DNA of 64,000 nucleotides. It comes from Bacteroidota bacterium (GTDB taxonomy: Bacteria; Bacteroidota; Bacteroidia; Bacteroidales; GCA-2711565). Below are positions 1,960-34,615 of this stretch, piece by piece. The notes under the pieces were generated by a model. That model was given only the letters and a program-made list of their open reading frames with translations, was not told the origin of the DNA and ran no database searches. Positions within the stretch are counted from its first letter, which is position 1; each line of letters begins with the position of its first letter. The position numbers and the translations under genes are program-made. The DNA lies in NCBI GenBank assembly GCA_018816945.1, contig JAHIVC010000099.1:64554-128553 (forward strand), given 5' to 3'.

Positions 1960-2035
1960 GATGAACTGTCTGACAGCAAGCTATCGAGGTGTCAATTTGG
2001 AAATTCTTTTTATTGATGACGCAAGCATCGGAGTA

Positions 2036-2163
2036 CCTACCTACGGCAGGCAGATTTCGCCAACTTTATTTCAGCAAAAAGCTGAAAACAGAATTTTCAT
2101 TATTTCACCCCTCTGTCAGTCATTCGACTGACATCCCTTCCTGCGGCAAGCTACCGTGTACCC
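2036..2163. repeat. Multi-hairpin intergenic repeat element, copy 1
   Basis: The 80-nt core 2059-2138 (gccaactttatttcagcaaaaagctgaaaacagaattttcattatttcacccctctgtcagtcattcgactgacatccct) matches 14846-14925 at 79/80. It contains hairpins ttcagc/gctgaa and gtcagtc/gactgac. The flanks are similar but diverged. Confidence 0.9.
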
Positions 2164-2442
2164 ACAAGTTTTGAGTTGTACATTTAATAAGATTATGGAG
2201 CGTAGGCCTGAAAAAACGGCGGGCGTGGGGTGGCATCGTGGGGAGATAGCATCGTTTTTTCTGTCTTTTTCTTTTGTTCGTCCCGACTAGTCGGGATGAA
2301 CAAAATGAAATTTTAACAGCATGGAAAAAGGGATATGATTCACAAGAATAGACTTGGAGTCATAGTATTAAAGCTGGGATTAGAAAGATTAAGTTATATA
2401 ATAAAAGGAGCCGAACTTATAAAAGATGTGTCCACACAGTAG

Positions 2443-2477
2443 CTGCGGCAAGGCAGGTCCCCTATAAATAGGGGAGA
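2443..2477. repeat. Hairpin module ctgcggcaaggcaggtcccct-N-aggggaga (second module of the same family)
   Basis: Matches 14928-14963 apart from loop bases. In this copy it is separated from the core by ~300 nt, whereas it is contiguous in the 14.8-kb copy. Confidence 0.8.
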
Positions 2478-2640
2478 AAATTTGCAAACCCCGAAGCAAG
2501 CATCAAAGCACCTAACTGCGCAAGCAGGCGTTCATCTTAAAGATTTCAAGGCACTATCCCCCCATAAAATGCTTTTTCTTGTTTTATTGCCAATAAGTTT
2601 AAAATTCTCATAATTCATTTCGTTATACGATGGCCATTAT

Positions 2641-2671
2641 AAAAAAAGGCTGCCTTTTGAGGGGCAGCCTT
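2641..2671 (-). terminator. Intrinsic terminator after susD
   Basis: A 9-bp stem aaggctgcc/ggcagcctt with an 8-nt loop. On the minus strand it is followed by T7 (plus-strand a2641-a2647). Confidence 0.8.
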
Positions 2672-2694
2672 TACAAAATTAAATTCTAATGTTA

Positions 2695-4167: not shown

Positions 4168-4189
4168 AATTTCTATCGTTTAATAGTGA

Positions 4190-7100
4190 CTAAAATGAAA
4201 CATTTACACCAAATGAGTAAGTTCTGGCCTGAGGTACCGTATTTCTGTCGATACCTGGTGTAAGGTTGCTATTTCCGTTGGCTGAAACTTCGGGATCTGA
4301 ACCTGTATAACCGGATATTACCAAGGCGTTGAAAACCTGTGCATAGAACCTTACTCTTTCAATTCCCCATGAACTAGGAATATTCTTTAATGTATAGCCA
4401 ACAGTTATATTGCGAACTTTTAAGTAATCACCTTTTTCAACGTTTTCAGATAGTACCATTGTAGAACCATTTGAGGTGTTATCGTTAAAAATTGGTTTCG
4501 GTATATTGGTGATGTCGCCCGGTTGTGACCAAGCTGTTTCATATACCTCAACCGTGTTGTTCCACCATCTTTGATCTCTCAAACCTGCCTTTGAACCGTT
4601 GTATAATTCGAAACCAAGCGCATAAGTTAAATTTAAAGAGAAATCAAAATTCTTATAGGTAAGGGTATTGTCTAAACCACCATAAACTGTTGGAAGAGGA
4701 GAGCCCAATATTTTCCCATCTGCATTAAGGGAAATTGCAGGGGCATTTCCACTACCATCCCTGTATTGCCATTGGGTAGCTGCGGAATTTTCACGATAAA
4801 AAAGAACTTCTTTACCGGCTGCGTTAACAAAAACCCTTCTACCTGTTGCAGGATCAACCCCTCTTGTTTCGATACCAAAAATATTTCCTACAGGAGATCC
4901 GATCATTGTACGGCTGGTTGTTTCCAAACCTGACGTCCTCCCGACAATTTCAGTTACACCGGGTGCCAATTCGGTAACTTCATTTTTAAGGGTACTGATA
5001 TTAAAATTGGTTGTCCAGGTGAAATCTTTTTTAGCCACATTATAACTTGTTAGCGAAAGTTCGAGACCTGTATTGTACATAGCTCCTATATTCATTGGAA
5101 TAGTATTGCCAGGTACCCCTTTTGAAGGAGACTGGGGAACATTGAGTATAAGGTCGTTCACATCATTATAGTACCAGTTCAGATCAACCTGAATTTTATC
5201 TTTAAGCAAGCCAAAGCTTAGGCCTATGTCATATTTATCACTCTTTTCCCATTTTAAATCAGGGTTACCTGCTTGATTGAATATCCATGTTGGTGCAGCA
5301 CCATAAACACCTGAACCATATAGGAATAAAGATGCGTATGAATCGATACCCGACATATTACCAACTTGTCCGTAACTGGCTTTAAATCGTAAATCAGAAA
5401 ATAACTCGCCTAATTTTCCGTCTTTCACAAAACTTTCATTTGAAAGGTTCCACATTAAAGATGCACCACCGAAAAGTCCATATTTATTATCTTTTGCTAA
5501 ACCTGAATATCCATCCTGACGCACACTGGCTTCGAAAAAATATCTTTTATCGTAGTTGGCATTAAAACGTCCGAAATAGGAAATGAAATAATTTTCATAT
5601 TGGGCTCCACCGCCCATTCCTGCAGTAACCCACGAACCCTGATAGGTTTCAAAAAATGGGTCAGCCACATTTGTTTTGTTGCCACTCCATCTATTTCCGG
5701 CAGTATATTGCTCCTCTGTACCGGCAAGAATACTTAAATTTGTTTTTTCTTTGAGGGTATACGAATAATTCACGGTATTGGTCCAGGTCCATCGGTTCAA
5801 ACGTTCGAAATTGTTTGTAGCATTCCCATTTGCAGAATAACCGTCACCGGTGATTCCGGATTGGAATGTAATGGATTCAACAGAAAGGTTATCGATACCA
5901 TAAACGGTTTTAAACACCAAATCTTTAATTGGTTCATAAGAAACTGAGAAATTGGCCAATACCCTGTCGGTTTGTGCTGTAAATGTATTGAGTTCGAATG
6001 CAGCAACAGGATTATAATAGCCATAATTTGCTACAGGTTGTCCCATATTTCCGATTGCCGAACCATTGATGTTATAGGTTCCATCGTTTTTAAAAGGTGC
6101 TATGTTTGGAGGAAGCACAAAAGCCAATCGGCCTGCACCTGCAGTATTAAATCCCTGACCAGGCAATGATCCTGTATTTGGCGCTTCATTCATTGAATTG
6201 GTAACCGTAATATTAGCACCTAAATTAATATACTTGTTCAATTTATGATCAAGATTGAACCTGACATTTTTTCTTGAATAAGTATTATTAATAACCATAC
6301 CTTCCTGATCGGTAAAGCCGGCTGAAAGATAATAAGTTGTTGAAGGAGAGGCTCCGGAAATGGTCACTGCATGATTATGTTGGAACCCAGTTCGATATAC
6401 CAGGTCTGCCCAATCCGTGTCGATAGGTTTGCCATCTGCATCGGTTGGAATAAAGAATTGGAATGCCAGTTGAGAAGGAAAATTTGCCAGTGCTTTGTTT
6501 TTATGCTCAACATATTGTGTGGCATTCATCATGTCAAAAATATTAAACGGTTGGGTATAACCAAAAGATCCATCGTAAGTAACTTTTGTTTTAGCAGTAT
6601 TTCCACGTCGTGTAGAAATTAAAATTACACCATTGGCAGCTCTGGATCCATAAATGGCTGTTGCTGATGCATCTTTTAAAATTTCCATTGATTGGATATC
6701 TGAGGGGTTAATATCGCCAAGGGGGTTTGATGCGGCACTATTTTGTGATACATCACCAGTAAAAACAGGTACTCCATCTACGACGATAAGTGGATAAGAA
6801 GAGGATGAAATTGAGTTAAAACCCCTAACCCTGATTACAGGAGGGTTATTCAATACCCCATTGGGCATGGTGATCATTACACCGGCAGCTTTCCCTTGTA
6901 ATGCCTGGTCGAAACTTTGAACAGGAACTAATTTAAGGTCATCGCCCTTTACGGATGATATGGCACCGGCAACATCTCGCTTCTTTTGTACACCATAACC
7001 AACAACCACTACTTCATCAAGTGAGGTTGAAGACATGTTCATTTGAACATTAATTACGGATTGGCTTCCTATCTCAATCTCTTGAGTAACCATACCAATA

Positions 7101-7324
7101 TAAGTAAAGCGAAGAATTTGAGCAGATGCAGGTAATGTAAAAGCATACTTGCCATCTATGTCAGTTGTTGTACCTATAGTAGTTCCTTTAACAACCACCT
7201 GTACACCAGGTATTGTAGAACCGTCTGAAGCACTTGTCACTGTACCAGTGATAGTTCTTCCTTGGGCAAAGGCAAAACTAATGCCCAGAAACATGAATAA
7301 TACAATAATTGCAATTCGTTTCAT
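4190..7324 (-). CDS. SusC/RagA-family TonB-dependent outer-membrane transporter
   Basis: 1044 aa with a signal peptide and a carboxypeptidase-regulatory-like N-domain (GRTITGTVTSASDGSTIPGVQVVVKGT). Plug motifs are present (VVVVGYG, ILKDASATAIYGSRAANGVILISTRRG) and the barrel ends ...YSFGVNVSF. There is no STN/anti-sigma N-extension. Confidence 0.9.
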   Translation of the reverse strand: MKRIAIIVLFMFLGISFAFAQGRTITGTVTSASDGSTIPGVQVVVKGTTIGTTTDIDGKYAFTLPASAQILRFTYIGMVTQEIEIGSQSVINVQMNMSSTSLDEVVVVGYGVQKKRDVAGAISSVKGDDLKLVPVQSFDQALQGKAAGVMITMPNGVLNNPPVIRVRGFNSISSSSYPLIVVDGVPVFTGDVSQNSAASNPLGDINPSDIQSMEILKDASATAIYGSRAANGVILISTRRGNTAKTKVTYDGSFGYTQPFNIFDMMNATQYVEHKNKALANFPSQLAFQFFIPTDADGKPIDTDWADLVYRTGFQHNHAVTISGASPSTTYYLSAGFTDQEGMVINNTYSRKNVRFNLDHKLNKYINLGANITVTNSMNEAPNTGSLPGQGFNTAGAGRLAFVLPPNIAPFKNDGTYNINGSAIGNMGQPVANYGYYNPVAAFELNTFTAQTDRVLANFSVSYEPIKDLVFKTVYGIDNLSVESITFQSGITGDGYSANGNATNNFERLNRWTWTNTVNYSYTLKEKTNLSILAGTEEQYTAGNRWSGNKTNVADPFFETYQGSWVTAGMGGGAQYENYFISYFGRFNANYDKRYFFEASVRQDGYSGLAKDNKYGLFGGASLMWNLSNESFVKDGKLGELFSDLRFKASYGQVGNMSGIDSYASLFLYGSGVYGAAPTWIFNQAGNPDLKWEKSDKYDIGLSFGLLKDKIQVDLNWYYNDVNDLILNVPQSPSKGVPGNTIPMNIGAMYNTGLELSLTSYNVAKKDFTWTTNFNISTLKNEVTELAPGVTEIVGRTSGLETTSRTMIGSPVGNIFGIETRGVDPATGRRVFVNAAGKEVLFYRENSAATQWQYRDGSGNAPAISLNADGKILGSPLPTVYGGLDNTLTYKNFDFSLNLTYALGFELYNGSKAGLRDQRWWNNTVEVYETAWSQPGDITNIPKPIFNDNTSNGSTMVLSENVEKGDYLKVRNITVGYTLKNIPSSWGIERVRFYAQVFNALVISGYTGSDPEVSANGNSNLTPGIDRNTVPQARTYSFGVNVSF

Positions 7325-24687: not shown

Positions 24688-25485
24688 TTATGATGAATAA
24701 ATATGCAGACTGTTTTGAGCAGCCGGTAAATAATTAATTCCAAACCAGCATACCAATAAAATAATAAAAGCGAAGGTAAGAATCCAAAGTGCCTGCGTCG
24801 TATTGGTTTTTTTCTTTATTCGAAGATGAATATAGATAAGATAAACCAACCAGGTTAATAAGGCCCAAGTTTCCTTAGGATCCCAGGTCCAATAATGTCC
24901 CCAGGCTTCTTTTGCCCATAATGCACCAAACAATAATCCAAATGTTAAAAAAGCAAAACCCAGATAAACCGAATTATCTGCTAATTTTAAGGTTGGATCA
25001 AAATCCATATTTTTCTTCATCAGAACTAAGCCCTTTAATGCCGTTAATGACGAAACGGCCAAAAAGGCATAAGCAATTATGTACACCACAACGTGTGGAA
25101 TAAACCAAGGCGATTGAAGTGCCGGCATCAATGTTTTATCAAAAGTTTCGGGGTTCATAATGTTTATGAACATAAACAAAACAGCCAACGTAAGGGTATA
25201 TGCCAACATCCAGAATATTTTCCATCGATAATAAATGAAAATCCCTATTACCGATAAAAATATAGAATACCATAAACGGGTTTCGCCAAGGGTCCGAAAT
25301 GGCGGACGCTCCAAACTTATCCATAAATTAATGGTAAAACAGGCCAGACCACCAACTCCAAGTATGAGAAATACTGCAGCAAACCAACTGTATGTTTTTG
25401 ATTTTACGAATATTAAAAAGAGCAATCCCACAATCCATAATGCAGTTGTGAGGTAAGTATATAGCGGAAAACTTGTCCAGGTCAT
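24688..25485 (-). CDS. ccsA: Cytochrome c biogenesis protein CcsA (System II heme lyase subunit)
   Basis: 265 aa, polytopic, with the tryptophan-rich WWD-type motif WGHYWTWDPKETWALLTWL. Confidence 0.85.
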   Translation of the reverse strand: MTWTSFPLYTYLTTALWIVGLLFLIFVKSKTYSWFAAVFLILGVGGLACFTINLWISLERPPFRTLGETRLWYSIFLSVIGIFIYYRWKIFWMLAYTLTLAVLFMFINIMNPETFDKTLMPALQSPWFIPHVVVYIIAYAFLAVSSLTALKGLVLMKKNMDFDPTLKLADNSVYLGFAFLTFGLLFGALWAKEAWGHYWTWDPKETWALLTWLVYLIYIHLRIKKKTNTTQALWILTFAFIILLVCWFGINYLPAAQNSLHIYSS

Positions 25486-25488
25486 AAA

Positions 25489-26739
25489 TTAGTCTTTAAT
25501 AGTTTTTGATCTTCCGGTTAGTGCCAGGTAAAGTGATCCTGCCAATATCATAAAAATACTGGTATAAACTGCAGGCAACCATGGGTCCCGAATGAGCTGA
25601 ATGGCACTCATTTTTGACCATTTTCCCATTTTCTCGTCATATCCAACCTGATAAATTTTATACCCAAATACTTCAATAGGTTTGTTTACTATAATCTCAG
25701 CATCTTCGTATTTACTTACAGTTTTGAAAATCCTTAGTTTTGAGCTGAATTTTTTTGGGGCTTGAACTGTCATTGCCAAGGATAGGGTTTCATTTAACGG
25801 CATCAACTGCTTATCATACATGAAATTACCTGCAGAAATCCATCCTGTTTTTTCAACGCCGCTATTTACATTTACTGCCTTTATTTCAACTGCCGGAGTT
25901 GCACCCATAGTAGATGAGCTATCATATTGCCCATCTTTATATCTTGCTTCGGCAATAGATTGCTCTATTTCGAATTGCCAATCATTCCAATTAAACTTAT
26001 TACCGATATTTACATCAAACAGCTTTTCTCCTTTTTTTGTCACAATTTTTGAGGTTTCGTTATCAATAATTGCCAGTGAAGGTGGATATTCTTCAATATC
26101 GAATTCAAGTAATTTAATAGCAAAAGGAAGTTGCTGTGTTATTCCGTTTTTATCCTCTGCAAAATAAATGGCCCGATCTAACACCAGGTTCATATTAAAC
26201 ATCTTTATATCGGCAGATCCCAGCGAAGCAGATGCTATCAAAATCCATAATCCGGCATGATTTAAGAAAAAACCGATATTTTTAAGATTGAATTTATTCA
26301 GTCTTTTAAAAATTGCATGACCAAGAATTGCAAGTAAGTAAATAGCAGAAAACAGGTAAGGCCAGCTATTTTTCAAATGAGTCAATCCCCAGGTTTGTAT
26401 CCAACCTTCCTGCCTTTGTTGAGGAATAAATGCCATTAAAAGAACCAGGAACATCACAAAACTGATAGCTGTAACTGCTGCCGGAACACCAGACAGAAAA
26501 GAAGTAATTCTATTGTTAAGAATTTTACTGCTTATCCAAAAAATGACAATGAGCCCAATGGCTATAACCAAATTAATAGGCCATCCTGGAAGGGTAATCC
26601 TGTATTCGGATAGCACAAATTCAAGAACAAAACCCGCGATCAGCAAAGCAAGGTTTATTAGAATGCTTTCCTTGAATCCCCAAGGCTTTTCCCATATTTT
26701 TTTGTTGATCTTTTCAGCGTTATCTATATCTGTATGCAT
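25489..26739 (-). CDS. ResB/CcsB-like cytochrome c biogenesis protein (System II)
   Basis: 416 aa with several N-terminal TMs, a large soluble loop and a C-terminal TM. Its stop lies 3 nt upstream of ccsA, the classic ccsB-ccsA arrangement. Confidence 0.7.
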   Translation of the reverse strand: MHTDIDNAEKINKKIWEKPWGFKESILINLALLIAGFVLEFVLSEYRITLPGWPINLVIAIGLIVIFWISSKILNNRITSFLSGVPAAVTAISFVMFLVLLMAFIPQQRQEGWIQTWGLTHLKNSWPYLFSAIYLLAILGHAIFKRLNKFNLKNIGFFLNHAGLWILIASASLGSADIKMFNMNLVLDRAIYFAEDKNGITQQLPFAIKLLEFDIEEYPPSLAIIDNETSKIVTKKGEKLFDVNIGNKFNWNDWQFEIEQSIAEARYKDGQYDSSSTMGATPAVEIKAVNVNSGVEKTGWISAGNFMYDKQLMPLNETLSLAMTVQAPKKFSSKLRIFKTVSKYEDAEIIVNKPIEVFGYKIYQVGYDEKMGKWSKMSAIQLIRDPWLPAVYTSIFMILAGSLYLALTGRSKTIKD

Positions 26740-26966
26740 AAAGTTATTTTAGTGTACCAAGGATCATATAAATCTAGTGTGGCGAATATACGAGTTTTTC
26801 AATCTAAGTAATATTGTTTTAAAGGACAAATTAAGATGAATTGTTTGAATTCAGGATAAAGCATTGAATCTTATATTTACCATTAAGATTTTGAAATATA
26901 GGTATATTGCCTATATAATTAGCCTTATTCATTTCTCATCTTTGATTTAAAAGTATCATGGAATTC

Positions 26967-26980
26967 ATGATAAATATCAT
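26967..26980. promoter_or_regulatory. FNR/CRP-like palindrome aTGAT-AAAT-ATCAt
   Basis: Located in the divergent region between the resB-like gene and the ImcH-like gene, 33 nt upstream of the -7 box at 27013. It matches 8 of 10 consensus positions of TTGAT-N4-ATCAA. Confidence 0.3.
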
Positions 26981-27012
26981 TCATATTAAAAATTACAGCT
27001 ATCTTAATTGTA

Positions 27013-27020
27013 TAATTTTG
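27013..27020 (+). promoter_or_regulatory. -7 box TAATTTTG upstream of the ImcH-like cytochrome gene
   Basis: Located 24 nt upstream of the ATG at 27044. It lies inside the 5' end of the track ORF that starts at the TTG at 27008. Confidence 0.4.
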
Positions 27021-27043
27021 TAAAACATACTAAAATTACTAAT

Positions 27044-28543
27044 ATGAAACTTCCAAAAACTGCCTATAACTGGACATCCTTAATTGGGGCGACCATATCA
27101 ATTATTTCATTATCGATGATCGTATTTCTATTTACGATATCAATCATGTTCGATAAAGGAGGTTCTTATCTTGGTATTTTTATTTACATGGTATTGCCCA
27201 TGTTTTTAATATTTGGATTAATTCTTATTCCAATTGGGATGTGGAAGCGGCACAGGGCGGAGTTAAAAAATGCTGATCTTAAAGAATTAAAATGGCTTAA
27301 AATAGATTTTAACGATCCAAAGCATAGAAATGCAATGTTGATTTTCATAGTTGGATCGGCCATATTTTTGTTTTTATCCTCCATTGGAAGTTATGAGGCC
27401 TTTCACTATTCCGAATCTGTAGAATTTTGTGGTACCGTTTGCCATGATGTGATGGAACCTGAATATGTTGCTTATCAAAACTCTCCACATGCAAGGGTTG
27501 CTTGTGTTGAATGTCACGTTGGTGAAGGTGCTGATTGGTATGTTCGTTCAAAATTATCAGGAATGTATCAGGTGTATTCAGTACTGTTTAAGAAGTATCC
27601 TACTCCAATTCCTACACCGGTTGAAAATTTACGTCCGGCCCGTGAAACATGCGAACGCTGTCATTGGCCCGAAAAATTTTATGCACAACAAAATCGCTTA
27701 GAAAAACATTATATTGCTGATGAACAAAATTCAGAATGGGACATCAGTTTGCAAATTAAAACAGGTCCCAATTACAGCGCTCTTGGATTGCAAGAAGGAA
27801 TTCACTGGCATATAAATCCTGATGTTACCATTGAGTATATTCCCGGTTCATCAAACAGAGAAGAAATCCCCTGGGTTAAATACACCAATAAAAAGACCGG
27901 CGAAACTTATATTTATGAAGACACTGAAAATCCATTAAGTGAAGAAGTAATTAATTCTTCGCAGATAAGAACGATGGATTGTATGGATTGCCATAATAGG
28001 CCTTCACATAATTATTTATCGCCGTCAAAGTTTGTTGACAATGCAATGATAGCAGGCCTAATGTCATCTTCTATCCCTGAGCTAAAAGTGACTGCCATGG
28101 GATTACTATCCATCGAATATCCAACCAAGGACAGTGCTTTAAACGCTATTGCATCTGGAATTAAAGGGTTTTATGAAAATTCTTATCCTGAATTTTTAGC
28201 AGAGAATAAAGGTTTAATCGATGATGCAATTACTGCATTGCAGGATGGATTTCAAAAAAACATATTCCCATTCATGAAAGTCAGATGGGATATATATCCT
28301 AACCATATTGGTCATATCGAAAGCAATGGGTGCTTCAGGTGTCATAATGATACCCATCAAACCAAGGAACAAAGGGCCATTTCTAAAGATTGTAATTTGT
28401 GTCATATTATCAATGCCCAAGGACCTCCTGCCAATTTGGAACGATCATTAACTTTTGATGCACTTGAATTTAAACATCCGGTGGATATTGGTGAGGAGTG
28501 GAAAGTTACAAATTGTGCCGAATGTCATTCAGCTTTATTTTAA
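27044..28543 (+). CDS. Inner-membrane heptaheme c-type cytochrome with a NapC/NirT-like module (ImcH-like architecture)
   Basis: Seven CxxCH motifs (CGTVCH, CVECH, CERCH, CMDCH, CFRCH, CNLCH, CAECH) and about 3 N-terminal TM helices. The NapC/NirT-like stretch is FCGTVCHDVMEPEYVAYQNSPHARVACVECH. I moved the start from the track's TTG at 27008 to the ATG at 27044, because a TAATTTTG -7 box sits at 27013-27020. Confidence 0.8.
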   Translation: MKLPKTAYNWTSLIGATISIISLSMIVFLFTISIMFDKGGSYLGIFIYMVLPMFLIFGLILIPIGMWKRHRAELKNADLKELKWLKIDFNDPKHRNAMLIFIVGSAIFLFLSSIGSYEAFHYSESVEFCGTVCHDVMEPEYVAYQNSPHARVACVECHVGEGADWYVRSKLSGMYQVYSVLFKKYPTPIPTPVENLRPARETCERCHWPEKFYAQQNRLEKHYIADEQNSEWDISLQIKTGPNYSALGLQEGIHWHINPDVTIEYIPGSSNREEIPWVKYTNKKTGETYIYEDTENPLSEEVINSSQIRTMDCMDCHNRPSHNYLSPSKFVDNAMIAGLMSSSIPELKVTAMGLLSIEYPTKDSALNAIASGIKGFYENSYPEFLAENKGLIDDAITALQDGFQKNIFPFMKVRWDIYPNHIGHIESNGCFRCHNDTHQTKEQRAISKDCNLCHIINAQGPPANLERSLTFDALEFKHPVDIGEEWKVTNCAECHSALF

Positions 28544-28596
28544 ATCAACATTGATAAACTTAATGGCCAGGTAAAGAATCGCATTCATACATACAT

Positions 28597-28629
28597 AAAA
28601 AAAACTCCTTTGGTTTAAAGGAGTTTTTT
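28597..28629. terminator. Bidirectional intrinsic terminator between the convergent ImcH-like and tetraheme genes
   Basis: An 11-bp stem aaaactccttt/aaaggagtttt with a 5-nt loop. The A-run before it and the T-run after it serve both strands. Confidence 0.85.
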
Positions 28630-28651
28630 ATTGAGTAACACTTATTGTAAA

Positions 28652-29143
28652 TTACTCGACTATAGTTGGGTGTGCAATTTTAGCAACATACTCTTTATAA
28701 TTAAAGCCTTTAAAATGTGGGCTTTCTGAATTATGGCATTTAAGGCATACCGCTTCTTTTGGCTCAATCATACCGTTTGCCAATGCTTTTGCCTTATCCT
28801 TCATAATAGCATTTGGGAAATATTTACTACCTGGTCCGTGACAAGATTCGCAAGATACACCTTCAGTAATTTTTAAACCAGCCACTAAATCTTTATCTAC
28901 ATGGCCAACCGTAGAATGGCATTTAATACACTTTGGATCTTTAGCTTCTGCAGCACTTAAAGATTCCATTGCTTTAGCATGTAATGATACTTGCCATTTA
29001 GCATACTGGGCTCCGGTTGCCGGTTTATTATGGCACATTTTACATTTATTTGCTCCTACATACTCAAAATCTTGAGCCATCAAGTTGCTGCTTCCCAGAA
29101 ACACAACTAATGAAATTAACATTAAAATTCTCATAATCATCAT
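28652..29143 (-). CDS. Secreted tetraheme c-type cytochrome (cytochrome c554-like small multiheme)
   Basis: 163 aa with a signal peptide (...SNLMAQDF) and four CxxCH motifs (CKMCH, CIKCH, CESCH, CLKCH). Confidence 0.8.
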   Translation of the reverse strand: MMIMRILMLISLVVFLGSSNLMAQDFEYVGANKCKMCHNKPATGAQYAKWQVSLHAKAMESLSAAEAKDPKCIKCHSTVGHVDKDLVAGLKITEGVSCESCHGPGSKYFPNAIMKDKAKALANGMIEPKEAVCLKCHNSESPHFKGFNYKEYVAKIAHPTIVE

Positions 29144-29191
29144 TTTTATAGTTAGACTGTTGTTTGTTTTTATTATTTATTAAACCTATTA

Positions 29192-29199
29192 CAAATTTA
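29192..29199 (-). promoter_or_regulatory. -7 box (TAAATTTG on the minus strand) upstream of the tetraheme cytochrome gene
   Basis: The plus strand reads caaattta, 49 nt upstream of the start at 29143. Confidence 0.35.
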
Positions 29200-29297
29200 A
29201 GACCATTAATTTCTGTTAATACACTCCGGCAATAATCATCAATTCATGATCTTCGCAGCATATCATGTAATCTACATTCAATCGCGAATATAGCTCA

Positions 29298-29311
29298 TTG
29301 ATTTCCATCAA
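29298..29311. promoter_or_regulatory. Perfect FNR/CRP-type palindrome TTGAT-TTCC-ATCAA
   Basis: Read directly. It lies in the 268-nt gap between the cytochrome b stop (29412) and the tetraheme cytochrome start (29143). Confidence 0.5.
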
Positions 29312-29411
29312 TGCATAAAGCATGGTTATTAGAATTAGTTTTTAAAATAGTTTGTTTAGTATTTCAATCAATTTTGTAGTCAAATTAGTTCAAATCAAAT
29401 ATAAATAATTA

Positions 29412-30026
29412 TCAATGTATTTCGTGATAGCCATTAATCATGCCCTTAAAATTACTAAGCGGTGTATGTCCGATGGTGCAAAAGTAGATATGGACAATTA
29501 AAAATAGTGAGACAATAAATCCCATTATAACGTGAATGATATGAGTTATATGTAATGCTTTGTTCCCAAAAAAATCAATAACCAAGAATTCGGGATATAG
29601 TATCATGATCCCTGTTAAAACCACAAGTGGGATAGTTACATACATCACAAAAATATAACTGAACTTTTGCAGTGGATTAAATTTATGCTCTTTAGTAATT
29701 GGAAATGGAGGATTTTCTCCTTTAAAAATACCAAAAGCATAATATCTGGCTTGCATAATCAAGTTCTTTACGATACCTTTTCTAAGAAAATACTGCCGAC
29801 CATTTGGTGTAAGGAAATTTCCCAGAAAAAAACAGATATAACTCAGTACCAGAATAATTCCGGCGATATTATGAATTGATACGGACCAATCAAATCGAAT
29901 CAGAGGAAGTGCCGGATCAGAATATTGCATGCTGATGCCGGTAAAGATCAACAATAAACAAAGGATTGCATTAAACCAATGCCAAAGCCTGATCCAAACG
30001 GGGTATAAATATATTTTTTCACTCAT
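29412..30026 (-). CDS. Membrane b-type cytochrome (FdnI/HydC/PhsC-like, Ni/Fe-hydrogenase cytochrome b family)
   Basis: 204 aa with 4 TM helices carrying conserved His residues (WIRLWHWFNAI, SIHNIAGI, HITHIIHVIMGF, LIVHIYF). Its start lies 5 nt after the stop of the upstream heptaheme gene. Confidence 0.75.
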   Translation of the reverse strand: MSEKIYLYPVWIRLWHWFNAILCLLLIFTGISMQYSDPALPLIRFDWSVSIHNIAGIILVLSYICFFLGNFLTPNGRQYFLRKGIVKNLIMQARYYAFGIFKGENPPFPITKEHKFNPLQKFSYIFVMYVTIPLVVLTGIMILYPEFLVIDFFGNKALHITHIIHVIMGFIVSLFLIVHIYFCTIGHTPLSNFKGMINGYHEIH

Positions 30027-30031
30027 GGCGC

Positions 30032-31006
30032 TTAATGTTTAATGATAATACGTAAGAAAGCATGAATACACAATCCCAGAAAAACTAAAACGAATAATCC
30101 AATACTGATAACATTCAGATAGTAATTTCTGTTAGCTCCAATTACATACGATTCTTCAAGCATTGCCTCATTTGAAAAACCGGTAATGCTTCGTTCGTTG
30201 GTAAACTGATATTTATAAAGAGAGGCAAGCAATCGCGATTCTTTCGAATGACACTCCACACAAAGCTTAATAGCCTCTTCTTTAGGCCGAACATTATGTG
30301 CAACTAAGGTGTTATCATTAATTTGAGTATGACATTCGATGCACCTAACTTTTTTAAAGTGAAGAACTTGGTTGGGCAACCAATTATGTGTTACTAAAAC
30401 ATTCGGGTTTTCCATCGTAGTCAACAACTGGTATTTAGAAATATCAGCATGGCAGGTCAAACAAATTTCATTATCGTATTGTATGAAATCAGCCATATTT
30501 TCGTTGGTACGTGCATTAATTTTATAACTATGCGGATTATGACACATCCAGCAGGTAAAGTCTTCGGAATGTTTTGAGGAGTGAACACTTTTGTGAAAAT
30601 CTTCTTCGATTTGCTCAAAATTGAACTTTGCATATTGTTCATCGCCGGCATGACAATCTAAACATGCAAATTTAGGCTCCATGCGCAATTGCCCTGAGTG
30701 GGGAAATTCTCCATAGTCGGCCGAATGACAATCCCTACAACTAAATTTCCAATGATTTGATTGGTAATATTCTACTGAATCCACGATAAAATATGGATTC
30801 ATTCTTTCTTTCACTTTTTTCCCCATCCAGTCGTTTTGATAGTAATAGTTTGCCTGTCCGTGACAACTGAAGCATAATTGATTGTCTTCGGCATACTCAG
30901 CTATTCTTTGAGTTTGATCAGTTTGTGCAAGTATATAATTAGGCTGAAATAAAAACAAAGAGAAGAAGATAAAAACACCTAAAATGCGATATAAATTTCT
31001 TTTCAT
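30032..31006 (-). CDS. Heptaheme c-type cytochrome with signal peptide and C-terminal membrane anchor
   Basis: 324 aa with seven CxxCH motifs (CFSCH, CRDCH, CLDCH, CWMCH, CLTCH, CIECH, CVECH) and a C-terminal TM (YYLNVISIGLFVLVFLGLCIHAFL). Confidence 0.8.
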   Translation of the reverse strand: MKRNLYRILGVFIFFSLFLFQPNYILAQTDQTQRIAEYAEDNQLCFSCHGQANYYYQNDWMGKKVKERMNPYFIVDSVEYYQSNHWKFSCRDCHSADYGEFPHSGQLRMEPKFACLDCHAGDEQYAKFNFEQIEEDFHKSVHSSKHSEDFTCWMCHNPHSYKINARTNENMADFIQYDNEICLTCHADISKYQLLTTMENPNVLVTHNWLPNQVLHFKKVRCIECHTQINDNTLVAHNVRPKEEAIKLCVECHSKESRLLASLYKYQFTNERSITGFSNEAMLEESYVIGANRNYYLNVISIGLFVLVFLGLCIHAFLRIIIKH

Positions 31007-31147
31007 CCTTTTATTGTTATAAAGGGTGCCATTATTGTGATGACACCCTTATAATTATTTAATCAAAAATAAGCAATAATTTAAATTGATTCGATGCTTT
31101 TCAACTTGAATTAATGAAGTCAGAAAACCAGTATTCATCTTACAAAT

Positions 31148-32017
31148 TTAGAAACCCCACAATCTTGTAATATTGAAACCTATAAACAAAGCTCCATCTT
31201 GCCAATCATTAATGTTGGTCATCATATTGTATTGTGGGCTAAGCGTATTGGCTGTTCCCATGAATATTTGGAAAGCGTGAGTTCCTGTTGCAAATTCAAC
31301 ACCAAAAGCTAAATTAGGTTTTGCTTTAAGATCCAAAACAGTATGTTCTTGAATTCCTTTGATATGCAAAGGAGCATCATAATTAAAAATGAAAGATCCT
31401 TGTGGGCTGAATTTTACCCTGCCACTAAAGGAAATCGCAATTTTATCATGTTCCTGTGTCGATTCAACCTTATTAATATGTGAGATACTTGGTGCAACCT
31501 GAAAAGAGAATGCATCGCAAAATTTTCGACCAATGATGATTTGGTTGAAAAATGAAAATCGATCTGTTCCACGTGAAGGTTGCCCGGCAGAAACAAATAC
31601 TTCCTTATTTCTACCATCAATACCAAAATTACTATAATAGGTTATGGCTAGCGGGCTTCCGCCTTCCCGGGCTTGTTTTAAAATACTCCATTTTAATCTA
31701 AAATCGGTCATTTTATTGTATTTTATGGCTCCAACACCGATCATGATATTATTGTTTATGCTATAATTCAATCCAAGTCTGATATTTGATGGTGCATAAA
31801 GACCATACAAATCGGTAATTCCGTTCTGGACGGTTCCAAAATTATGCTCAATAATCATTTCAAGTGTTCGGGCATCTGGAATTACTCCGGTTTGGGCATT
31901 GATTAAAATCCCACTTTCAAATGGTGATCTTACCGGTTTAACTTCAACTTTTTCTTCTTGTGCAAGGAGAACGCCAAAACACATCAAAAAAGCCAGTATT
32001 ATGCTATATTTTTTCAT
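31148..32017 (-). CDS. Predicted small outer-membrane beta-barrel protein (possibly DUF5777-like)
   Basis: 289 aa with a signal peptide (...GVLLAQEEK). It shows an alternating hydrophobic pattern throughout and a terminal aromatic residue (...GFNITRLWGF), typical of OM barrels. The family name is from memory and unverified. Confidence 0.6.
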   Translation of the reverse strand: MKKYSIILAFLMCFGVLLAQEEKVEVKPVRSPFESGILINAQTGVIPDARTLEMIIEHNFGTVQNGITDLYGLYAPSNIRLGLNYSINNNIMIGVGAIKYNKMTDFRLKWSILKQAREGGSPLAITYYSNFGIDGRNKEVFVSAGQPSRGTDRFSFFNQIIIGRKFCDAFSFQVAPSISHINKVESTQEHDKIAISFSGRVKFSPQGSFIFNYDAPLHIKGIQEHTVLDLKAKPNLAFGVEFATGTHAFQIFMGTANTLSPQYNMMTNINDWQDGALFIGFNITRLWGF

Positions 32018-32035
32018 CTTTTTCTGATTTATAAG

Positions 32036-32449
32036 TTAATTATTTTTAGCACCCTCTGTAATCCATTTCAGGACCAATGCACTTTGTGAATCTGTAAATT
32101 GCTTCCAGGCGTGCGTACCTGCTCCAGGCTTAACGTAAGTGTACAATTTGCTGGAAGCCGGATTAGCTGTATTTACAAGACCCTTGGAAATGATTTCGCT
32201 ATAGGCTTTTGCAGCAGTCAAATAAGGACGGGTTCCACCGTCTCCATGACAGGATGTACAACGATTACCTGTTGTAAAAATGGGTACAATCATCGTAGAA
32301 AAACTAGTTGCATCCGGATCAACAGGATCATCTGGATCTGGTTCCTCAATAGGGGGAGGAGTAGGGCGATATATAAAATCATATTCACAACCCGTAACAA
32401 CCATCATTCCAACGAAAACCAGTATTAGTATATATATTGATTTTTTCAT
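32036..32449 (-). CDS. Monoheme c-type cytochrome lipoprotein with an acidic Pro-rich linker (PSCyt-like heme motif)
   Basis: Start chosen at the ATG at 32449 (MKKSIYILILVFVGMMVVTGC lipobox). The track's TTG start at 32479 falls inside a terminator hairpin. The linker reads PTPPPIEEPDPDDPVDPD and there is a single CxxCH (IVPIFTTGNRCTSCHGDGG). Confidence 0.6.
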   Translation of the reverse strand: MKKSIYILILVFVGMMVVTGCEYDFIYRPTPPPIEEPDPDDPVDPDATSFSTMIVPIFTTGNRCTSCHGDGGTRPYLTAAKAYSEIISKGLVNTANPASSKLYTYVKPGAGTHAWKQFTDSQSALVLKWITEGAKNN

Positions 32450-32477
32450 TGCAGAAATTTTAAATGTCATTTTAATC

Positions 32478-32510
32478 AAAAAAAGGCACCTTAAATAACC
32501 GATGCCTTTT
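32478..32510 (-). terminator. Intrinsic terminator or attenuator inside the cytochrome operon, after the hexaheme gene
   Basis: The minus strand reads aaaggca-tcggttatttaagg-tgccttt followed by a T-run. It lies between the stop at 32533 and the next start at 32449. Confidence 0.65.
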
Positions 32511-32532
32511 TCTATATGGTTAATTACATAAC

Positions 32533-33609
32533 TTATTTAACTTTCGCAATCGTATTTTTCAGAATGCCAATTACATATTGTGGATTGTGAACTCCAAGGC
32601 TCTTGTCTTCAGTAGCTAATTGCCAGTTAATAAAAGCTGCTGCTAAGTTGGCTGGTTGCGAACCTGCAATTGCATAACCTGCATGGCCTTTTGAACCATC
32701 ATCATAGATACCTTTTGCAGTCAAGATAGCTTGTAACTCATCTAATAAAGTTTGAACTTCTAATTGTAAAGCTTTAACTTGTGCAGTCACTTCGGTGGTG
32801 CTAGTATGACAACTGGTACAACCTGCATAAGAAATCGCACCTGTTTCTTCATTAGTTACATTAAAAGTATGACCACCGGTAGAAGTGCCAGTAGCTGCAG
32901 CCATATGACAAGCAACACAACCGTCTTCCACATAATTTGCATGGGTGTTGATACCATAAGTTGCGGTTCCGCCCATTTTAATTAAACCTTCGCCTGCTAA
33001 TACGTTTGCCTGTGGACCATGATGGCCACCATAACGATAAGAAGTTAAAGTTACATTAGCTCCATCAACAACTGGCATTGGGCTAATTGGTCTAGATTGA
33101 TGACAGGTAGCACATAAATTACCTTTTCCAAAATCAACAGTGGCACCACCAACAAATAATTGAACATTTGCCGTTTGTGTTAAGCCTAAATCAGCAGGAG
33201 TGAATGTTTTGTGAATGTTATGACAAGTATAACAGTTAATTGGGTTGGGATTGTTGATAATTATACCATCATAAGTTCCGGCTAGGTTAGCAAGGAATCC
33301 TTGACTGGTATGACAAGTTGCACATGCACCGGTATTTCTTGCAAAAGCTTCACCAGTTGCATGAAGTGAATGTTCCCATTGGTTTACTTGTGCAAACATA
33401 CCCTGAGATTGACCCCCGTCGTGACATAGGATACAACCTGCTGTTCCGTCTATTCCGTCAACACCTGCTTCGCCTCTTGGTCCGGCTGGTCCTACTGCTC
33501 CATCAATTCCGTCTTTTCCTGCAGCACCTTCCTTGGTACAACTTGTAATCATTAACACAGAAAACAGAAATGCAACTGTTAAAAAAGTTAAAAATGTAAA
33601 TCTTTTCAT
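32533..33609 (-). CDS. Hexaheme c-type cytochrome lipoprotein with an N-terminal collagen-like Gly-X-Y repeat
   Basis: 358 aa with lipobox LMITSC. Eleven uninterrupted G-X-Y triplets follow (GAAGKDGIDGAVGPAGPRGEAGVDGIDGTAGCI). There are six CxxCH motifs (CILCH, CATCH, CYTCH, CATCH, CVACH, CTSCH). Confidence 0.8.
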   Translation of the reverse strand: MKRFTFLTFLTVAFLFSVLMITSCTKEGAAGKDGIDGAVGPAGPRGEAGVDGIDGTAGCILCHDGGQSQGMFAQVNQWEHSLHATGEAFARNTGACATCHTSQGFLANLAGTYDGIIINNPNPINCYTCHNIHKTFTPADLGLTQTANVQLFVGGATVDFGKGNLCATCHQSRPISPMPVVDGANVTLTSYRYGGHHGPQANVLAGEGLIKMGGTATYGINTHANYVEDGCVACHMAAATGTSTGGHTFNVTNEETGAISYAGCTSCHTSTTEVTAQVKALQLEVQTLLDELQAILTAKGIYDDGSKGHAGYAIAGSQPANLAAAFINWQLATEDKSLGVHNPQYVIGILKNTIAKVK

Positions 33610-33741
33610 TTGTCGTAGTTTTAAGTTAATATTTTTAGCGCTTGTTTATTCTTTAACAATATTAAACATTTTATAAAATCCACGTCTTTAAAGGGAAATG
33701 AGATATTTCAAACCGAAAATTGAAATAAACTATCCTTTTGC

Positions 33742-33755
33742 TTGACATTTATCAA
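33742..33755. promoter_or_regulatory. FNR/CRP-type palindrome TTGAc-ATTT-ATCAA (9/10)
   Basis: Located in the divergent region between the hexaheme cytochrome start (33609) and the Crp/Fnr regulator start (33920). Confidence 0.45.
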
Positions 33756-33919
33756 CCAAAGTTGGATATTTGTCACCTTTTGTGTTTGTTAAGATTCTTG
33801 AGACATGCTGTTTTTTCTATTAAATATTTGATTTTTAATACTATATAACTTTTACTACTTGCTTATTTAATTACATTATAAATAATGTACTATAAATCAG
33901 TTAACTAAACAACTTAACT

Positions 33920-34615
33920 ATGCCTACCTATATTAACAATGCATTATGCAAAGATTGTTCTAAAAGGCTTAACATTTTTCATTTTTTAACCGACGATGAA
34001 ATGGACTATATCAACGAGCATCGTCATGAGGTAAAATTCAATCCCGGCGAAACAATTTTCAAGCAAGGAGGAGCATTCACTCATGTTGCGTGTTTGACAT
34101 CAGGTTATGGAAAAGTTTATATAGAAGGCATCAATAAAAAGAATCTGGTTCTTAATATTTTACGACCTACAGAAATGATTGGTGGACCCGGATTGTTCAA
34201 CGATTTTCGTCATCATTATTCGGTTTCCGCAATTGATGATGTTGTTGCTTGTTTTATTGAAGTTGAGTCTTTTATGGAAGTTGCGAAACAAAACAAGGAG
34301 TTTGCTTCGGAACTATTCAAATGGATCAACCAAAAAGGGGTCCGTAATTTTGAAAAGCTGATTAATCTTACCCAAAAACAAATGCCCGGAAGAATAGCAG
34401 ATGCCTTACTCTATCTTTCAAACTCTGTTTACGAAAATGATAAATTTACGGTCAATATTTCACGTCAGGATATTGCAGATCTGGCAGCCATGTCGAAAGA
34501 AAGTGCCATCCGAATTATTAAAGAATTCAAAGAATCGGGCTTTATTACCTGTGAGGGGAACGATTTTAATATTCTCGATCCAAAGGCACTGCATAAAATT
34601 AGTCAGACCGGTTAA
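33920..34615 (+). CDS. Crp/Fnr-family transcriptional regulator
   Basis: 231 aa with a cNMP-binding-like beta-roll (FNPGETIFKQGG...) and a C-terminal HTH (SRQDIADLAAMSKESAIRIIKEFKESGFI). An N-terminal CxxC (CKDC) is present. The gene is divergent from the cytochrome operon. Confidence 0.85.
   Translation: MPTYINNALCKDCSKRLNIFHFLTDDEMDYINEHRHEVKFNPGETIFKQGGAFTHVACLTSGYGKVYIEGINKKNLVLNILRPTEMIGGPGLFNDFRHHYSVSAIDDVVACFIEVESFMEVAKQNKEFASELFKWINQKGVRNFEKLINLTQKQMPGRIADALLYLSNSVYENDKFTVNISRQDIADLAAMSKESAIRIIKEFKESGFITCEGNDFNILDPKALHKISQTG

Follow-up and report, generated by a model that had tools for sequence, protein, structure and literature searches.

Does a compact group of cytochrome genes in a genome of the Bacteroidota encode a route by which electrons leave the cell, and, if it does, how do they cross the outer membrane? 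The locus that raises this question lies at positions 24688 to 34615 of a 64-kb stretch of contig JAHIVC010000099.1 (positions 64,554 to 128,553 of the contig, assembly GCA_018816945.1), from a bacterium of the order Bacteroidales; the whole stretch is referred to here as the window and the ten-gene locus as the island. The ten genes encode five c-type cytochromes, a cytochrome b, an outer-membrane barrel of the DUF5777 family, two cytochrome c maturation proteins and a Crp/Fnr-family regulator. On balance, we favour the reading that the island specifies an outward extracellular electron transfer (EET) chain, induced under anoxia, that would run from the menaquinol pool to the cell surface. 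A first-pass annotation, made from the DNA alone, had proposed the same quinone-to-surface logic. This logic is supported by the homology of the inner-membrane parts, of the ImcH and CbcBA types, to EET quinol oxidoreductases of Geobacter, and also by an OcwA-like hexahaem lipoprotein and by a related cluster in an anode-enriched metagenome-assembled genome (MAG). What fits it less well is the export of the lipoproteins, which match the known signal for surface export only in part.

Content of the island

The ten open reading frames have the coordinates and strands that the first-pass annotation had given them. Its family assignments were confirmed gene by gene in Pfam and NCBIfam searches, and its topology assignments by inspection of hydropathy and lipoboxes. 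It had counted 25 CxxCH motifs. The total of 25 haem sites stood, with a different make-up: a motif count gave 24 canonical CxxCH motifs (6, 4, 7, 1 and 6 in the ImcH-like, tetrahaem, heptahaem, monohaem and hexahaem proteins, respectively), and the 25th site is a CX3CH motif, CGTVCH, in the 511-amino-acid ImcH-like protein. We counted this motif as a haem site because it is a published hallmark of ImcH (PMC6295460). The window encodes no c-type cytochrome outside the island. The motif count of the island proteins found no CxxCK, as had been claimed, and no catalytic enzyme was found across the 64-kb window.

Related loci were collected by a pattern scan in which each GTDB species was represented by one genome; individual loci are cited below by L numbers. 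All neighbours within ±10 kb of the barrel gene were then clustered blind in 83 loci. No molybdenum, copper, CxxCK-type or HAO-type enzyme recurred near the barrel gene in this census. The island had been described as pure wiring without a catalytic partner, and this description holds for the window and for the 83 loci, in which only cytochromes, Ccs genes and Crp/Fnr regulators recur. A known terminal enzyme encoded consistently just outside such clusters, which would have spoken for a different function, was looked for in the same loci and not found.

Inner-membrane proteins of the ImcH and CbcBA types

Three genes encode proteins predicted to face the quinone pool.

27008..28543, plus strand: ImcH homologue, probable inner-membrane heptahaem cytochrome of 511 amino acids (haem motifs, topology, NrfH-like module)
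30032..31006, minus strand: CbcA-like heptahaem cytochrome c (seven CxxCH motifs, signal peptide, C-terminal transmembrane segment at residues 304-322)
29412..30026, minus strand: CbcB-like dihaem cytochrome b with four transmembrane segments (PF01292, Ni_hydr_CYTB; E value, 3.9e-25)

Hydropathy peaks of the 511-amino-acid protein mark three transmembrane segments, at residues 30-48, 56-74 and 109-127. The CGTVCH motif (C141 to H146) follows right after the third segment and is itself followed by six CxxCH motifs; every haem Cys and His is invariant across 37 orthologues. Residues 115-220 match the NrfH model TIGR03153 (E value, 1e-17), and the protein also matches PF03264 (E value, 2e-8) and NrfH in the PDB (2j7a_C; E value, 0.0016). 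Its true start is likely M13, at 27044, which is conserved in orthologues. The hallmarks published for ImcH are a length of 495-519 amino acids, three N-terminal transmembrane segments, a CX3CH motif by the membrane domain, six CxxCH motifs and an NrfH-like start (PMC6295460; ImcH biochemistry preprint). The protein has every one of these, and we assign it as a putative ImcH homologue from its architecture and the literature descriptions rather than from an alignment to GSU3259. The label of a NapC/NirT-type protein in the first-pass annotation was thus right for the N-terminal part, which is NapC/NirT/NrfH-like, and too generic for a protein with ImcH hallmarks.

In Geobacter, ImcH is an inner-membrane heptahaem menaquinol oxidase used for high-potential extracellular acceptors. 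A 2018 survey by Zhong & Shi counted Bacteroidetes homologues of both ImcH and CbcL, found ImcH homologues only in Fe(III) reducers and found no mtrAB or mtoAB genes beside imcH genes (PMC6295460).

The second inner-membrane unit corresponds to CbcBA, a bc-type quinol oxidoreductase that Geobacter uses with extracellular acceptors near the thermodynamic limit. It consists of a seven-haem CbcA with one C-terminal transmembrane segment and a four-transmembrane dihaem b subunit that is annotated as thiosulfate reductase-like (Joshi et al. 2021). The island has the same A-then-B order, and 5 bp separate the cbcA-like gene from the cytochrome b gene that follows it. The cytochrome b scored 187.9 bits against the PhsC model NF011582, just below its cut-off of 204, and its H16, H52, H165, H179 and H201 are invariant across 67 orthologues. 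PDB sequence searches with the cytochrome b and the CbcA-like protein gave no informative match. The published hallmarks are met by both proteins, which we assign as a likely CbcBA-type pair from architecture and literature, not from an alignment to GSU0593/GSU0594. The earlier reading as a four-transmembrane b-type cytochrome was correct in topology; it can be narrowed from a generic cytochrome b to the named CbcBA family. Homologues of cbcBA in Bacteroidetes (Prolixibacter, Marinilabiliales, Labilibaculum) have been noted and proposed as an EET marker (Joshi et al. 2021).

The transmembrane helix of the CbcA-like protein holds a histidine, H315, that is invariant in 74 orthologues. Possibly, this residue acts as a ligand for one of the b-haems in the partner protein.

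Homologues of these proteins recur in organisms grown on electrodes. A Zoogloea gene pair, PMGACJAN_00645/00646 (PMC8258643, Suppl. Table 2), encodes proteins 42% identical to the window cytochrome b and 32% identical (full length) to the heptahaem protein, and in the anode-enriched Zoogloea it directly adjoins homologues of MtrB/PioB and DmsE. From its position beside MtrB and DmsE, this CbcBA-type pair therefore appears to work at the inner membrane for a classical porin-cytochrome conduit of Betaproteobacteria. In the same study, a MAG named 'Bacteroidetes_1' was enriched 39-fold on the anode, and its 7-gene cluster (six multihaem cytochromes and a predicted barrel), which is uncharacterised, was proposed as a new EET system (Ouboter et al. 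2021, PMC8258643). By our own comparison of the published sequences with the window, the ImcH-like protein of this anode-enriched cluster is 41% identical to that of the window over the full length, its tetrahaem cytochrome is 37% identical to the window tetrahaem, and its collagen-like cytochrome lipoprotein is 29.5% identical (full length) to the window hexahaem. From the Zoogloea and 'Bacteroidetes_1' matches we concluded that these modules recur beside accepted and suspected conduits.

Related loci may add a third quinol oxidoreductase. In 21 of them (e.g., L003, 12659-15466), a protein of about 935 amino acids has 19 CxxCH motifs and a C-terminal Ni_hydr_CYTB domain, and it is therefore a cytochrome c-b fusion of the CbcL/MtoC type. 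Its gene is flanked on one side by the gene for cytochrome b and on the other by the tetrahaem or imcH gene; at this place the window has a gap of 268 bp (29144-29411). Some relatives thus have all three Geobacter-type quinol oxidoreductases (ImcH, CbcBA and CbcL types) in one locus.

The direction of flow was also considered in reverse, as an inward conduit in which Fe(II), Fe(0), cathodes or partner cells would supply electrons to the quinone pool or to periplasmic reductases. We think this quite improbable. It could be accommodated by the CbcL/MtoC-type proteins, which occur in iron oxidisers and iron reducers alike (PMC6295460), and by the ability of some Prolixibacter strains to corrode Fe(0), although the study of Prolixibacter corrosion ascribes the effect to nitrite. 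The restriction of ImcH homologues to Fe(III) reducers in the 2018 survey argues against it.

A hexahaem lipoprotein with a collagen-like stalk

Two further cytochromes are predicted to act beyond the inner membrane.

32533..33609, minus strand: OcwA-like hexahaem lipoprotein with a collagen-like stalk (lipobox ITSC, six CxxCH motifs)
28652..29143, minus strand: periplasmic tetrahaem cytochrome of the c554 family (signal peptide, four CxxCH motifs, PF13435; E value, 2.6e-12)

The tetrahaem is likely a soluble periplasmic shuttle. The hexahaem family, of which we aligned 55 homologues, has an invariant lipobox Cys followed by T-K-E-G-P, and C-T-K-E-G-P is kept in 35-38 of 39 orthologues. After the lipid anchor comes a run of Gly-x-y triplets, about 10 in the window and 5-11 in orthologues. 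A collagen triple helix rises 0.29 nm per residue; provided that such a helix forms, the stalk would be roughly 9 nm long. Six conserved His residues outside the haem motifs (H83, H133, H196, H223, H247 and H341) suggest, as judged from conservation, that all six haems could be six-coordinate.

The AlphaFold model of the hexahaem has a predicted local distance difference test (pLDDT) score of 81, with the stalk disordered in the monomer. Its best PDB match in Foldseek is OcwA of Thermincola potens (6i5b; E value, 3.6e-6; query template-modelling score [TMq], 0.5), and the next matches are octahaem nitrite reductases and then NrfA. A profile of the family matched OcwA (E value, 1.2e-12) in the region of the last two haems and of the G-V-H-N helix bundle at the C terminus, and it matched NrfA with an E value of 4.9e-8. 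Where the hexahaem and NrfA profiles align collinearly, the match takes in haems 2-3 and 4-5 of NrfA; the part of NrfA with CxxCK, which holds its active-site haem, aligned out of order and non-significantly. The protein looks like an NrfA-superfamily scaffold that would serve as an electron carrier, as OcwA does at the cell surface.

An NrfA-type enzyme was considered for the hexahaem. This reading is weakened by the lack of CxxCK, by the six distal-His candidates for six haems, which leave no haem obviously open, and by collinear alignments that begin at NrfA haem 2.

These results bear on the main rival explanation for the whole island, a periplasmic chain for a soluble acceptor. Its lipoproteins would face the periplasm, ImcH and CbcBA would feed a hexahaem reductase, and the barrel would be an uptake channel for chelated Fe(III), a quinone or humic shuttle, a sulfur or nitrogen oxyanion or selenite. 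In favour of such a chain are the kinship of the hexahaem with NrfA, octahaem nitrite reductases and OcwA, and the PhsC-like cytochrome b. Yet the features that weaken the NrfA reading, together with the disordered alignment of the active-site haem region, count against a hexahaem reductase, and a stalk of about 9 nm would be hard to account for in a periplasmic enzyme; the known bacterial collagen-like proteins are, to our knowledge, surface proteins. The use of ImcH and CbcBA for extracellular acceptors in Geobacter and the anode enrichment of the homologous cluster point the same way. We consider a soluble-acceptor chain unlikely.

A barrel modelled with 12 strands, paired with a monohaem lipoprotein

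The EET reading requires an outer-membrane step, for which the island has two candidate genes.

31148..32017, minus strand: DUF5777 outer-membrane barrel of 289 amino acids (PF19089; E value, 3.9e-73)
32036..32479, minus strand: monohaem lipoprotein of 147 amino acids, putative barrel partner (lipobox VTGC, one CxxCH motif)

The barrel scored 246.2 bits against PF19089 (cut-off, 23.1) over model positions 1-247 of 247, and it ends in RLWGF. Its AlphaFold2 model has 12 strands (pLDDT, 87; predicted template-modelling score, 0.82). The nearest PDB folds are FapF, the COG4313 channel, OmpG and NanC, all with template-modelling scores of about 0.5. Conservation in the family is unusually high: in an alignment of 58 homologues, 26 columns are invariant and the mean column identity is 54%. 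Conserved charged or polar residues at lumen parity are N78, R80, N84, D105, K109, R153, Q159, K165, Q173, R200, K202, D214 and E241; by strand parity in the model, the charged residues are predicted to line the lumen.

Four His residues of the barrel (H58, H180, H190 and H247) are also invariant. By strand parity, H58, H180 and H247 would lie on the hydrophobic face, towards the membrane or an interface, and H190-D191 in an outer loop. Possible roles are an oligomer interface or the binding of a cofactor or partner.

The first-pass annotation had likened the island to the Mtr and Pcc systems, with outer-membrane parts that do not resemble MtrABC or PccF-H. The dissimilarity was borne out: DUF5777 is an unrelated family, and its barrel has 12 strands. 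For the same reason the "sheath" logic of Mtr/Pcc was not carried over, and a reading of the barrel as an MtrB/PccF-type sheath was rejected. A 12-strand barrel is too narrow to hold a multihaem cytochrome, and the crossing of the outer membrane must therefore differ from that in MtrAB or Pcc.

The monohaem lipoprotein probably starts at M11 (32449), which is conserved in orthologues. Orthologues of about 130 amino acids share x-Y-(D/E)-(F/W)-(I/V) after the lipidated Cys, a linker rich in Pro and acidic residues, and an end reading W-I-x-x-G-A-K-N-N; the window protein has EYDFIY after the lipobox, a Pro/Asp-rich linker of about 30 residues and the same C-terminal motif. A PSCyt1 domain had been suggested as a check for the island proteins, and no Pfam PSCyt1 match was obtained for this one, which gave weak class-I cytochrome c signals only. 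The sixth haem ligand is His in 46 of 74 orthologues (His123 in the window) and Met in 13; among the sequences inspected, the Met-type proteins have a CX4CH-type site (e.g., SCNMSGCH) in place of CxxCH. This switch of ligand implies redox potentials that depend on lineage. In a strict test, the monohaem gene lay directly upstream of the barrel gene in 72 of 82 cases, and the two are also paired in a distant DUF5777 subfamily (see below).

Two side observations concern this pair. A hairpin, AAGGGTG ... CACCCTT with a loop of about 15 nt (31019-31050), lies inside the 141-bp gap between the barrel and heptahaem genes and could be an internal attenuator or an element for mRNA processing or stability. 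The smallest version of the cluster among the loci examined (L077, 8613-12813) has crp and, in order, genes for the monohaem lipoprotein, the barrel, a soluble monohaem cytochrome and an ImcH-like protein; it lacks the hexahaem gene and the CbcBA pair.

As a tentative proposal, which we hold with considerable doubt, the monohaem lipoprotein and the 12-strand DUF5777 barrel could together form a hitherto unrecognised, minimal trans-outer-membrane electron-transfer unit, a two-piece counterpart of Cyc2, that hands electrons to a trimeric, stalked hexahaem. One possibility is that the Pro-rich tether allows the lone haem to enter the charged lumen. Another is the involvement of a small cofactor, lipophilic or metallic, which would fit the YceI partner found in aerobes (see below) and the invariant membrane-facing His residues.

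The same pair is what an inward conduit would use in a Cyc2-like manner, and it does resemble Cyc2 in its parts and combined size (147 plus 289 amino acids). Against this, the barrel has 12 strands, compared with the 16 proposed for Cyc2, and no fusion of DUF5777 to a cytochrome was found: among the 150 best of 1,831 representative DUF5777 clusters, the four longest have no CxxCH motif, and one of these four is a tandem barrel. For a soluble-acceptor chain, the conserved charged lumen and a channel-type 12-strand fold like those of NanC, KdgM, OmpG and COG4313 are favourable, but a plain channel would leave its obligate monohaem partner unexplained.

Conservation and wider family

Close relatives of the DUF5777 barrel were found in at least 570 loci of species-representative genomes. 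In the best 80, the barrel is 46-97% identical to that of the window. Their hosts include Prolixibacteraceae, Lentimicrobiaceae and Mariniphaga, and isolates of Draconibacterium, Tangfeifania and Maribellus. About 80 loci share an almost invariant core order, in which crp stands beside a run of hexahaem, monohaem, barrel, heptahaem and cytochrome b genes. In the 83-locus census, genes for the barrel (82 loci), the monohaem (79), heptahaem (77) and hexahaem (73) proteins, the cytochrome b (72) and the Crp/Fnr regulator (61) were the most frequent. Less frequent were an extra soluble monohaem cytochrome (49), ImcH-like (36) and tetrahaem (22) proteins, the 19-haem protein of about 935 amino acids (21), a fused ResB-CcsA (17), and NrfC-like (7) and NrfD-like (6) proteins.

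A second DUF5777 subfamily, for which the genome scan was built on a 5-sequence alignment, accounts for at least 587 further loci in Saprospiraceae, Chitinophagaceae, Cytophagales, Flavobacteriales and Mucilaginibacter. Its operon (e.g., L084, 5109-7143; set L085-L164) encodes one or two monohaem lipoproteins, a tRNA_anti-like membrane protein (PF12869), a YceI-like protein (PF04264) and the barrel, and no multihaem genes are present in these operons. Relatives of the window have a copy of this second type beside ccsA (L002, 17042-18406, minus strand; L037, 18395-20792, minus strand), and the window does not. In all, the monohaem-barrel unit occurs in more than 1,100 loci of species-representative Bacteroidota genomes. 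Its presence in both subfamilies indicates that it is an old, phylum-wide outer-membrane unit, and in the clade of the window this unit has been combined with an EET-type cytochrome chain.

The second subfamily gives rise to another explanation, in which the pair is a general outer-membrane housekeeping module for redox or lipid chemistry (e.g., for isoprenoid quinones with YceI) or for surface detoxification. It would provide no exit for electrons and would merely be co-located with a periplasmic cytochrome network. The operon with tRNA_anti-like and YceI-like genes, found in mostly aerobic hosts, is consistent with this, as is a fold like those of channels for hydrophobic compounds (COG4313) and polypeptides (FapF). 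In about 80 loci, however, the pair is embedded between the hexahaem and cbcA-like genes, with gaps of 18-141 bp and one promoter with an FNR box. This embedding and the conserved order argue that the pair shares its function with the cytochromes, and we give the housekeeping explanation little credence. The abundance of the pair in aerobes could also be cited for an inward conduit.

Regulation

The island carries a regulator gene and two FNR-type promoter elements.

33920..34615, plus strand: Crp/Fnr-family regulator (PF00027; E value, 2.7e-15; and PF13545, HTH_Crp_2; E value, 4.7e-14)
29298..29311, unstranded: FNR-type box TTGATTTCCATCAA, perfect, upstream of the tetrahaem gene
33742..33755, unstranded: FNR-type box TTGACATTTATCAA, in the divergent crp/hexahaem promoter region

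TTGAY-N4-ATCAA occurs just twice in the window, each time in a promoter region of the island. Of 74 related loci, 53 have a TTGA-N6-TCAA box in the 350 bp that precede the hexahaem gene, where about 0.03 would be expected per locus. A sigma-70 promoter scan gave nothing informative, since promoters are different in Bacteroidota. The regulator has three Cys ligand candidates (C10, C13 and C111), which are conserved in 68 orthologues. The C23-C122 spacing of E. coli FNR is similar to that of C13 and C111, and the Cys pattern of the regulator resembles that of the FNR Fe-S ligands, although no fourth ligand was found besides the three candidates. The operon is likely induced under anoxia.

The direction of electron flow had been held not to be inferable from the sequence. 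The ImcH/CbcBA ancestry of the inner-membrane proteins and the conserved FNR boxes now favour outward, anaerobic flow. FNR-type control suggests anaerobic respiration, which is a further argument against an inward conduit.

Maturation genes and genomic setting

The remaining features of the island are a pair of maturation genes and a terminator.

24688..25485, minus strand: CcsA, System II cytochrome c synthase or haem-handling subunit (PF01578; E value, 2.6e-35)
25489..26739, minus strand: ResB/CcsB-like partner of CcsA (PF05140; E value, 1e-11; residues 326-370)
28599..28629, unstranded: bidirectional terminator hairpin (13-pair stem, then a T-run) between the convergent imcH-like and tetrahaem genes

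In NCBIfam, CcsA matched TIGR03144 (ccsB-type; E value, 1.6e-43). Hydropathy indicates six hydrophobic segments, and the translation carries a Trp-rich motif of the WWD type, WGHYWTWDPKETW. The ResB-like protein has four transmembrane-like segments, three N-terminal and one C-terminal. The two Pfam matches and the Trp-rich motif bear out the assignment to System II maturation that had been made at first sight. The genes are separate, 3 bp apart, in the window and its closest relatives; in 17 related loci (e.g., L014, 18029-20902; L066, 17972-20890), they are fused into one for a protein of about 970 amino acids.

The island is flanked by housekeeping genes (ispG, trkAH and others), GC content is flat across the window, and ispG and trkAH also lie beside crp in the related loci L002 and L003. 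A mobile island was therefore rejected; uniform GC content and housekeeping flanks indicate a stable chromosomal operon set. The window barrel gene is about 97% identical to one in a Horonobe groundwater MAG, HGW-Bacteroidetes-17. At the start of the window (3-7324), two large proteins with near-identical N termini (MKR..IIVLF.FLG..FAFAQGRTITG.VTSA.DGSTIPGVQVVVKGTTI) are encoded with a lipoprotein in between. By eye, these genes look like a SusC/SusD-type polysaccharide uptake system, which fits a Bacteroidota host.

Proposed pathway and its significance

The favoured outward chain would work as follows. In the absence of oxygen, the FNR-like regulator, a putative oxygen sensor by its Cys pattern, would bind the TTGAY-N4-ATCAA boxes and turn the genes on, and the System II proteins of the island would mature its 25 haem sites. 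The ImcH homologue and the CbcBA-type pair would oxidise quinol, as their Geobacter counterparts do, and feed electrons to the periplasm; many relatives would add the 19-haem CbcL-type fusion as a third quinol oxidoreductase. The c554-type tetrahaem, and in many relatives a small soluble monohaem cytochrome too, would ferry electrons over the periplasm. The next carrier may be one physical unit at the outer membrane, made up of the monohaem lipoprotein and the 12-strand barrel, whose genes are paired; in it, most likely the single haem domain or the Pro-rich tether sits in or at the charged lumen. The hexahaem, probably a trimer held by the collagen-like stalk that its Gly-x-y repeats suggest, would be exposed on the surface as the terminal donor to Fe(III) or Mn(IV) minerals, humics, electrodes or partner cells.

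Several points weigh against this chain. Its weakest link is the outer-membrane step, because it is not obvious how 12 strands and one haem could span the bilayer: if the haem sits at one mouth of the barrel, the gap that is left is as thick as the membrane and too wide for simple tunnelling. The pair is found without multihaem cytochromes in the at least 587 mostly aerobic loci of the second subfamily, and its basic role thus extends beyond metal respiration. That the lipoproteins are exposed on the surface is unproven, and their N termini fit such a location only in part. The export signal tested in Bacteroidota is C-X-K-(D/E)2; the hexahaem has C-T-K-E-G, with K at +3 and one acidic residue, and the monohaem has one or two acidic residues. 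This incomplete match in both proteins also lends some weight to lipoproteins that face the periplasm in a soluble-acceptor chain. OcwA reportedly also reduces soluble substrates, in work by Costa and coworkers (Costa et al., in 2019), and kinship of fold is therefore no proof of a solid-phase acceptor. Finally, the function given to every member of the island is a reading of its sequence.

If the outward chain is correct, the FNR-controlled cluster, with its at least 570 loci, would give a respiratory electron sink to the Prolixibacteraceae, Lentimicrobiaceae and Marinilabiliales, fermenters that abound in anoxic sediments, aquifers, digesters and electrode biofilms. A share of the Bacteroidales in the reduction of iron, manganese and humics is usually ignored because marker-gene tools seek Mtr, Pcc, Omc and Cyc2. 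DUF5777, the monohaem lipoprotein and the collagen-like hexahaem are candidate markers for surveys. If the proposal of a minimal trans-outer-membrane unit is correct as well, the pair and the trimeric, stalked hexahaem that receives its electrons would amount to a Gram-negative surface "electrode contact" of a new kind. For a barrel of 12 strands whose partner has one haem, the question is by what means electrons traverse the outer membrane when no haem wire is present, and this question is testable, since there are cultured carriers (Draconibacterium, Tangfeifania, Maribellus and Sunxiuqinia).

Comparison with known systems

The first-pass annotation had regarded the module as uncharacterised in Bacteroidota. 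This stood for the outer-membrane trio, of which we found no description, and not for the inner-membrane families, already remarked on in Bacteroidetes (Joshi 2021; Zhong & Shi 2018). We found no paper that mentions DUF5777, and searches for OcwA, multihaem proteins or EET with Bacteroidota gave general remarks beyond Joshi 2021 and Ouboter 2021. The outer-membrane half (the barrel and the monohaem and hexahaem lipoproteins) thus appears to be undescribed, with its distribution, regulation and pairing rule. What appears to be new here is this outer-membrane set; the inner-membrane families were known, and a related cluster had been flagged without being analysed. The study of the Horonobe site, the source of the near-identical MAG, defined a multihaem cytochrome as one with at least 10 haems, and this cluster would therefore not have been scored there. 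Labilibaculum manganireducens, a fermentative member of the Marinilabiliales, is able to reduce Mn oxide.

At the inner membrane, the window protein shares with ImcH of Geobacter sulfurreducens the three N-terminal transmembrane segments, the CX3CH motif followed by six CxxCH motifs, a length of about 500 amino acids and the NrfH-like first module. It differs in being clustered with outer-membrane genes and in being under FNR-type control. The heptahaem and cytochrome b pair likewise has the seven-haem CbcA with a single C-terminal transmembrane segment, the four-transmembrane dihaem b subunit and the A-then-B order of CbcBA of G. sulfurreducens. The regulator of CbcBA in Geobacter is the sigma-54-dependent BccR, whereas the window has a Crp/Fnr-type regulator and FNR boxes; in addition, the window pair shares its operon with outer-membrane genes and has the invariant H315 in its transmembrane helix.

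The 'Bacteroidetes_1' cluster has the homologues of the ImcH-like, tetrahaem and collagen-like proteins described above, and a CbcL-type fusion. Its barrel, in contrast, has 426 amino acids and is unrelated to DUF5777, it has 14-haem and 6-haem proteins and lacks a monohaem lipoprotein and a CbcBA pair, and its host belongs to another class (UBA10030). OcwA, a surface reductase of the Gram-positive electrogen T. potens, belongs to the same NrfA/octahaem nitrite reductase superfamily as the window hexahaem and is its best match in both fold and profile. The two are 19% identical. OcwA has nine haems and no N-terminal lipid anchor or Gly-x-y stalk, whereas the hexahaem has six haems and both of these features, is from a Gram-negative organism and, by its six distal-His candidates, would have no open haem.

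At the outer membrane, the island resembles MtrCAB of Shewanella and PccF-H and OmbB-OmaB-OmcB of Geobacter in that a barrel, periplasmic cytochromes and a lipoprotein multihaem cytochrome are encoded together. The barrels of these conduits have about 20-26 strands (26 in MtrB) and enclose a periplasmic multihaem cytochrome; the window barrel has 12 strands in 289 amino acids, is of the unrelated DUF5777 family and has no deca- or octahaem protein to thread. By parts list and size, there is also a likeness to Cyc2 of iron oxidisers, a single polypeptide with an N-terminal monohaem domain fused to a porin, in which one haem and a small barrel form an outer-membrane redox unit of similar combined size and for which 16 strands have reportedly been proposed, by Keffer et al. 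in 2021. The window differs from Cyc2 in having two genes, a lipoprotein cytochrome on a Pro-rich tether, a 12-strand barrel and, around them, a multihaem chain of the reductive type.

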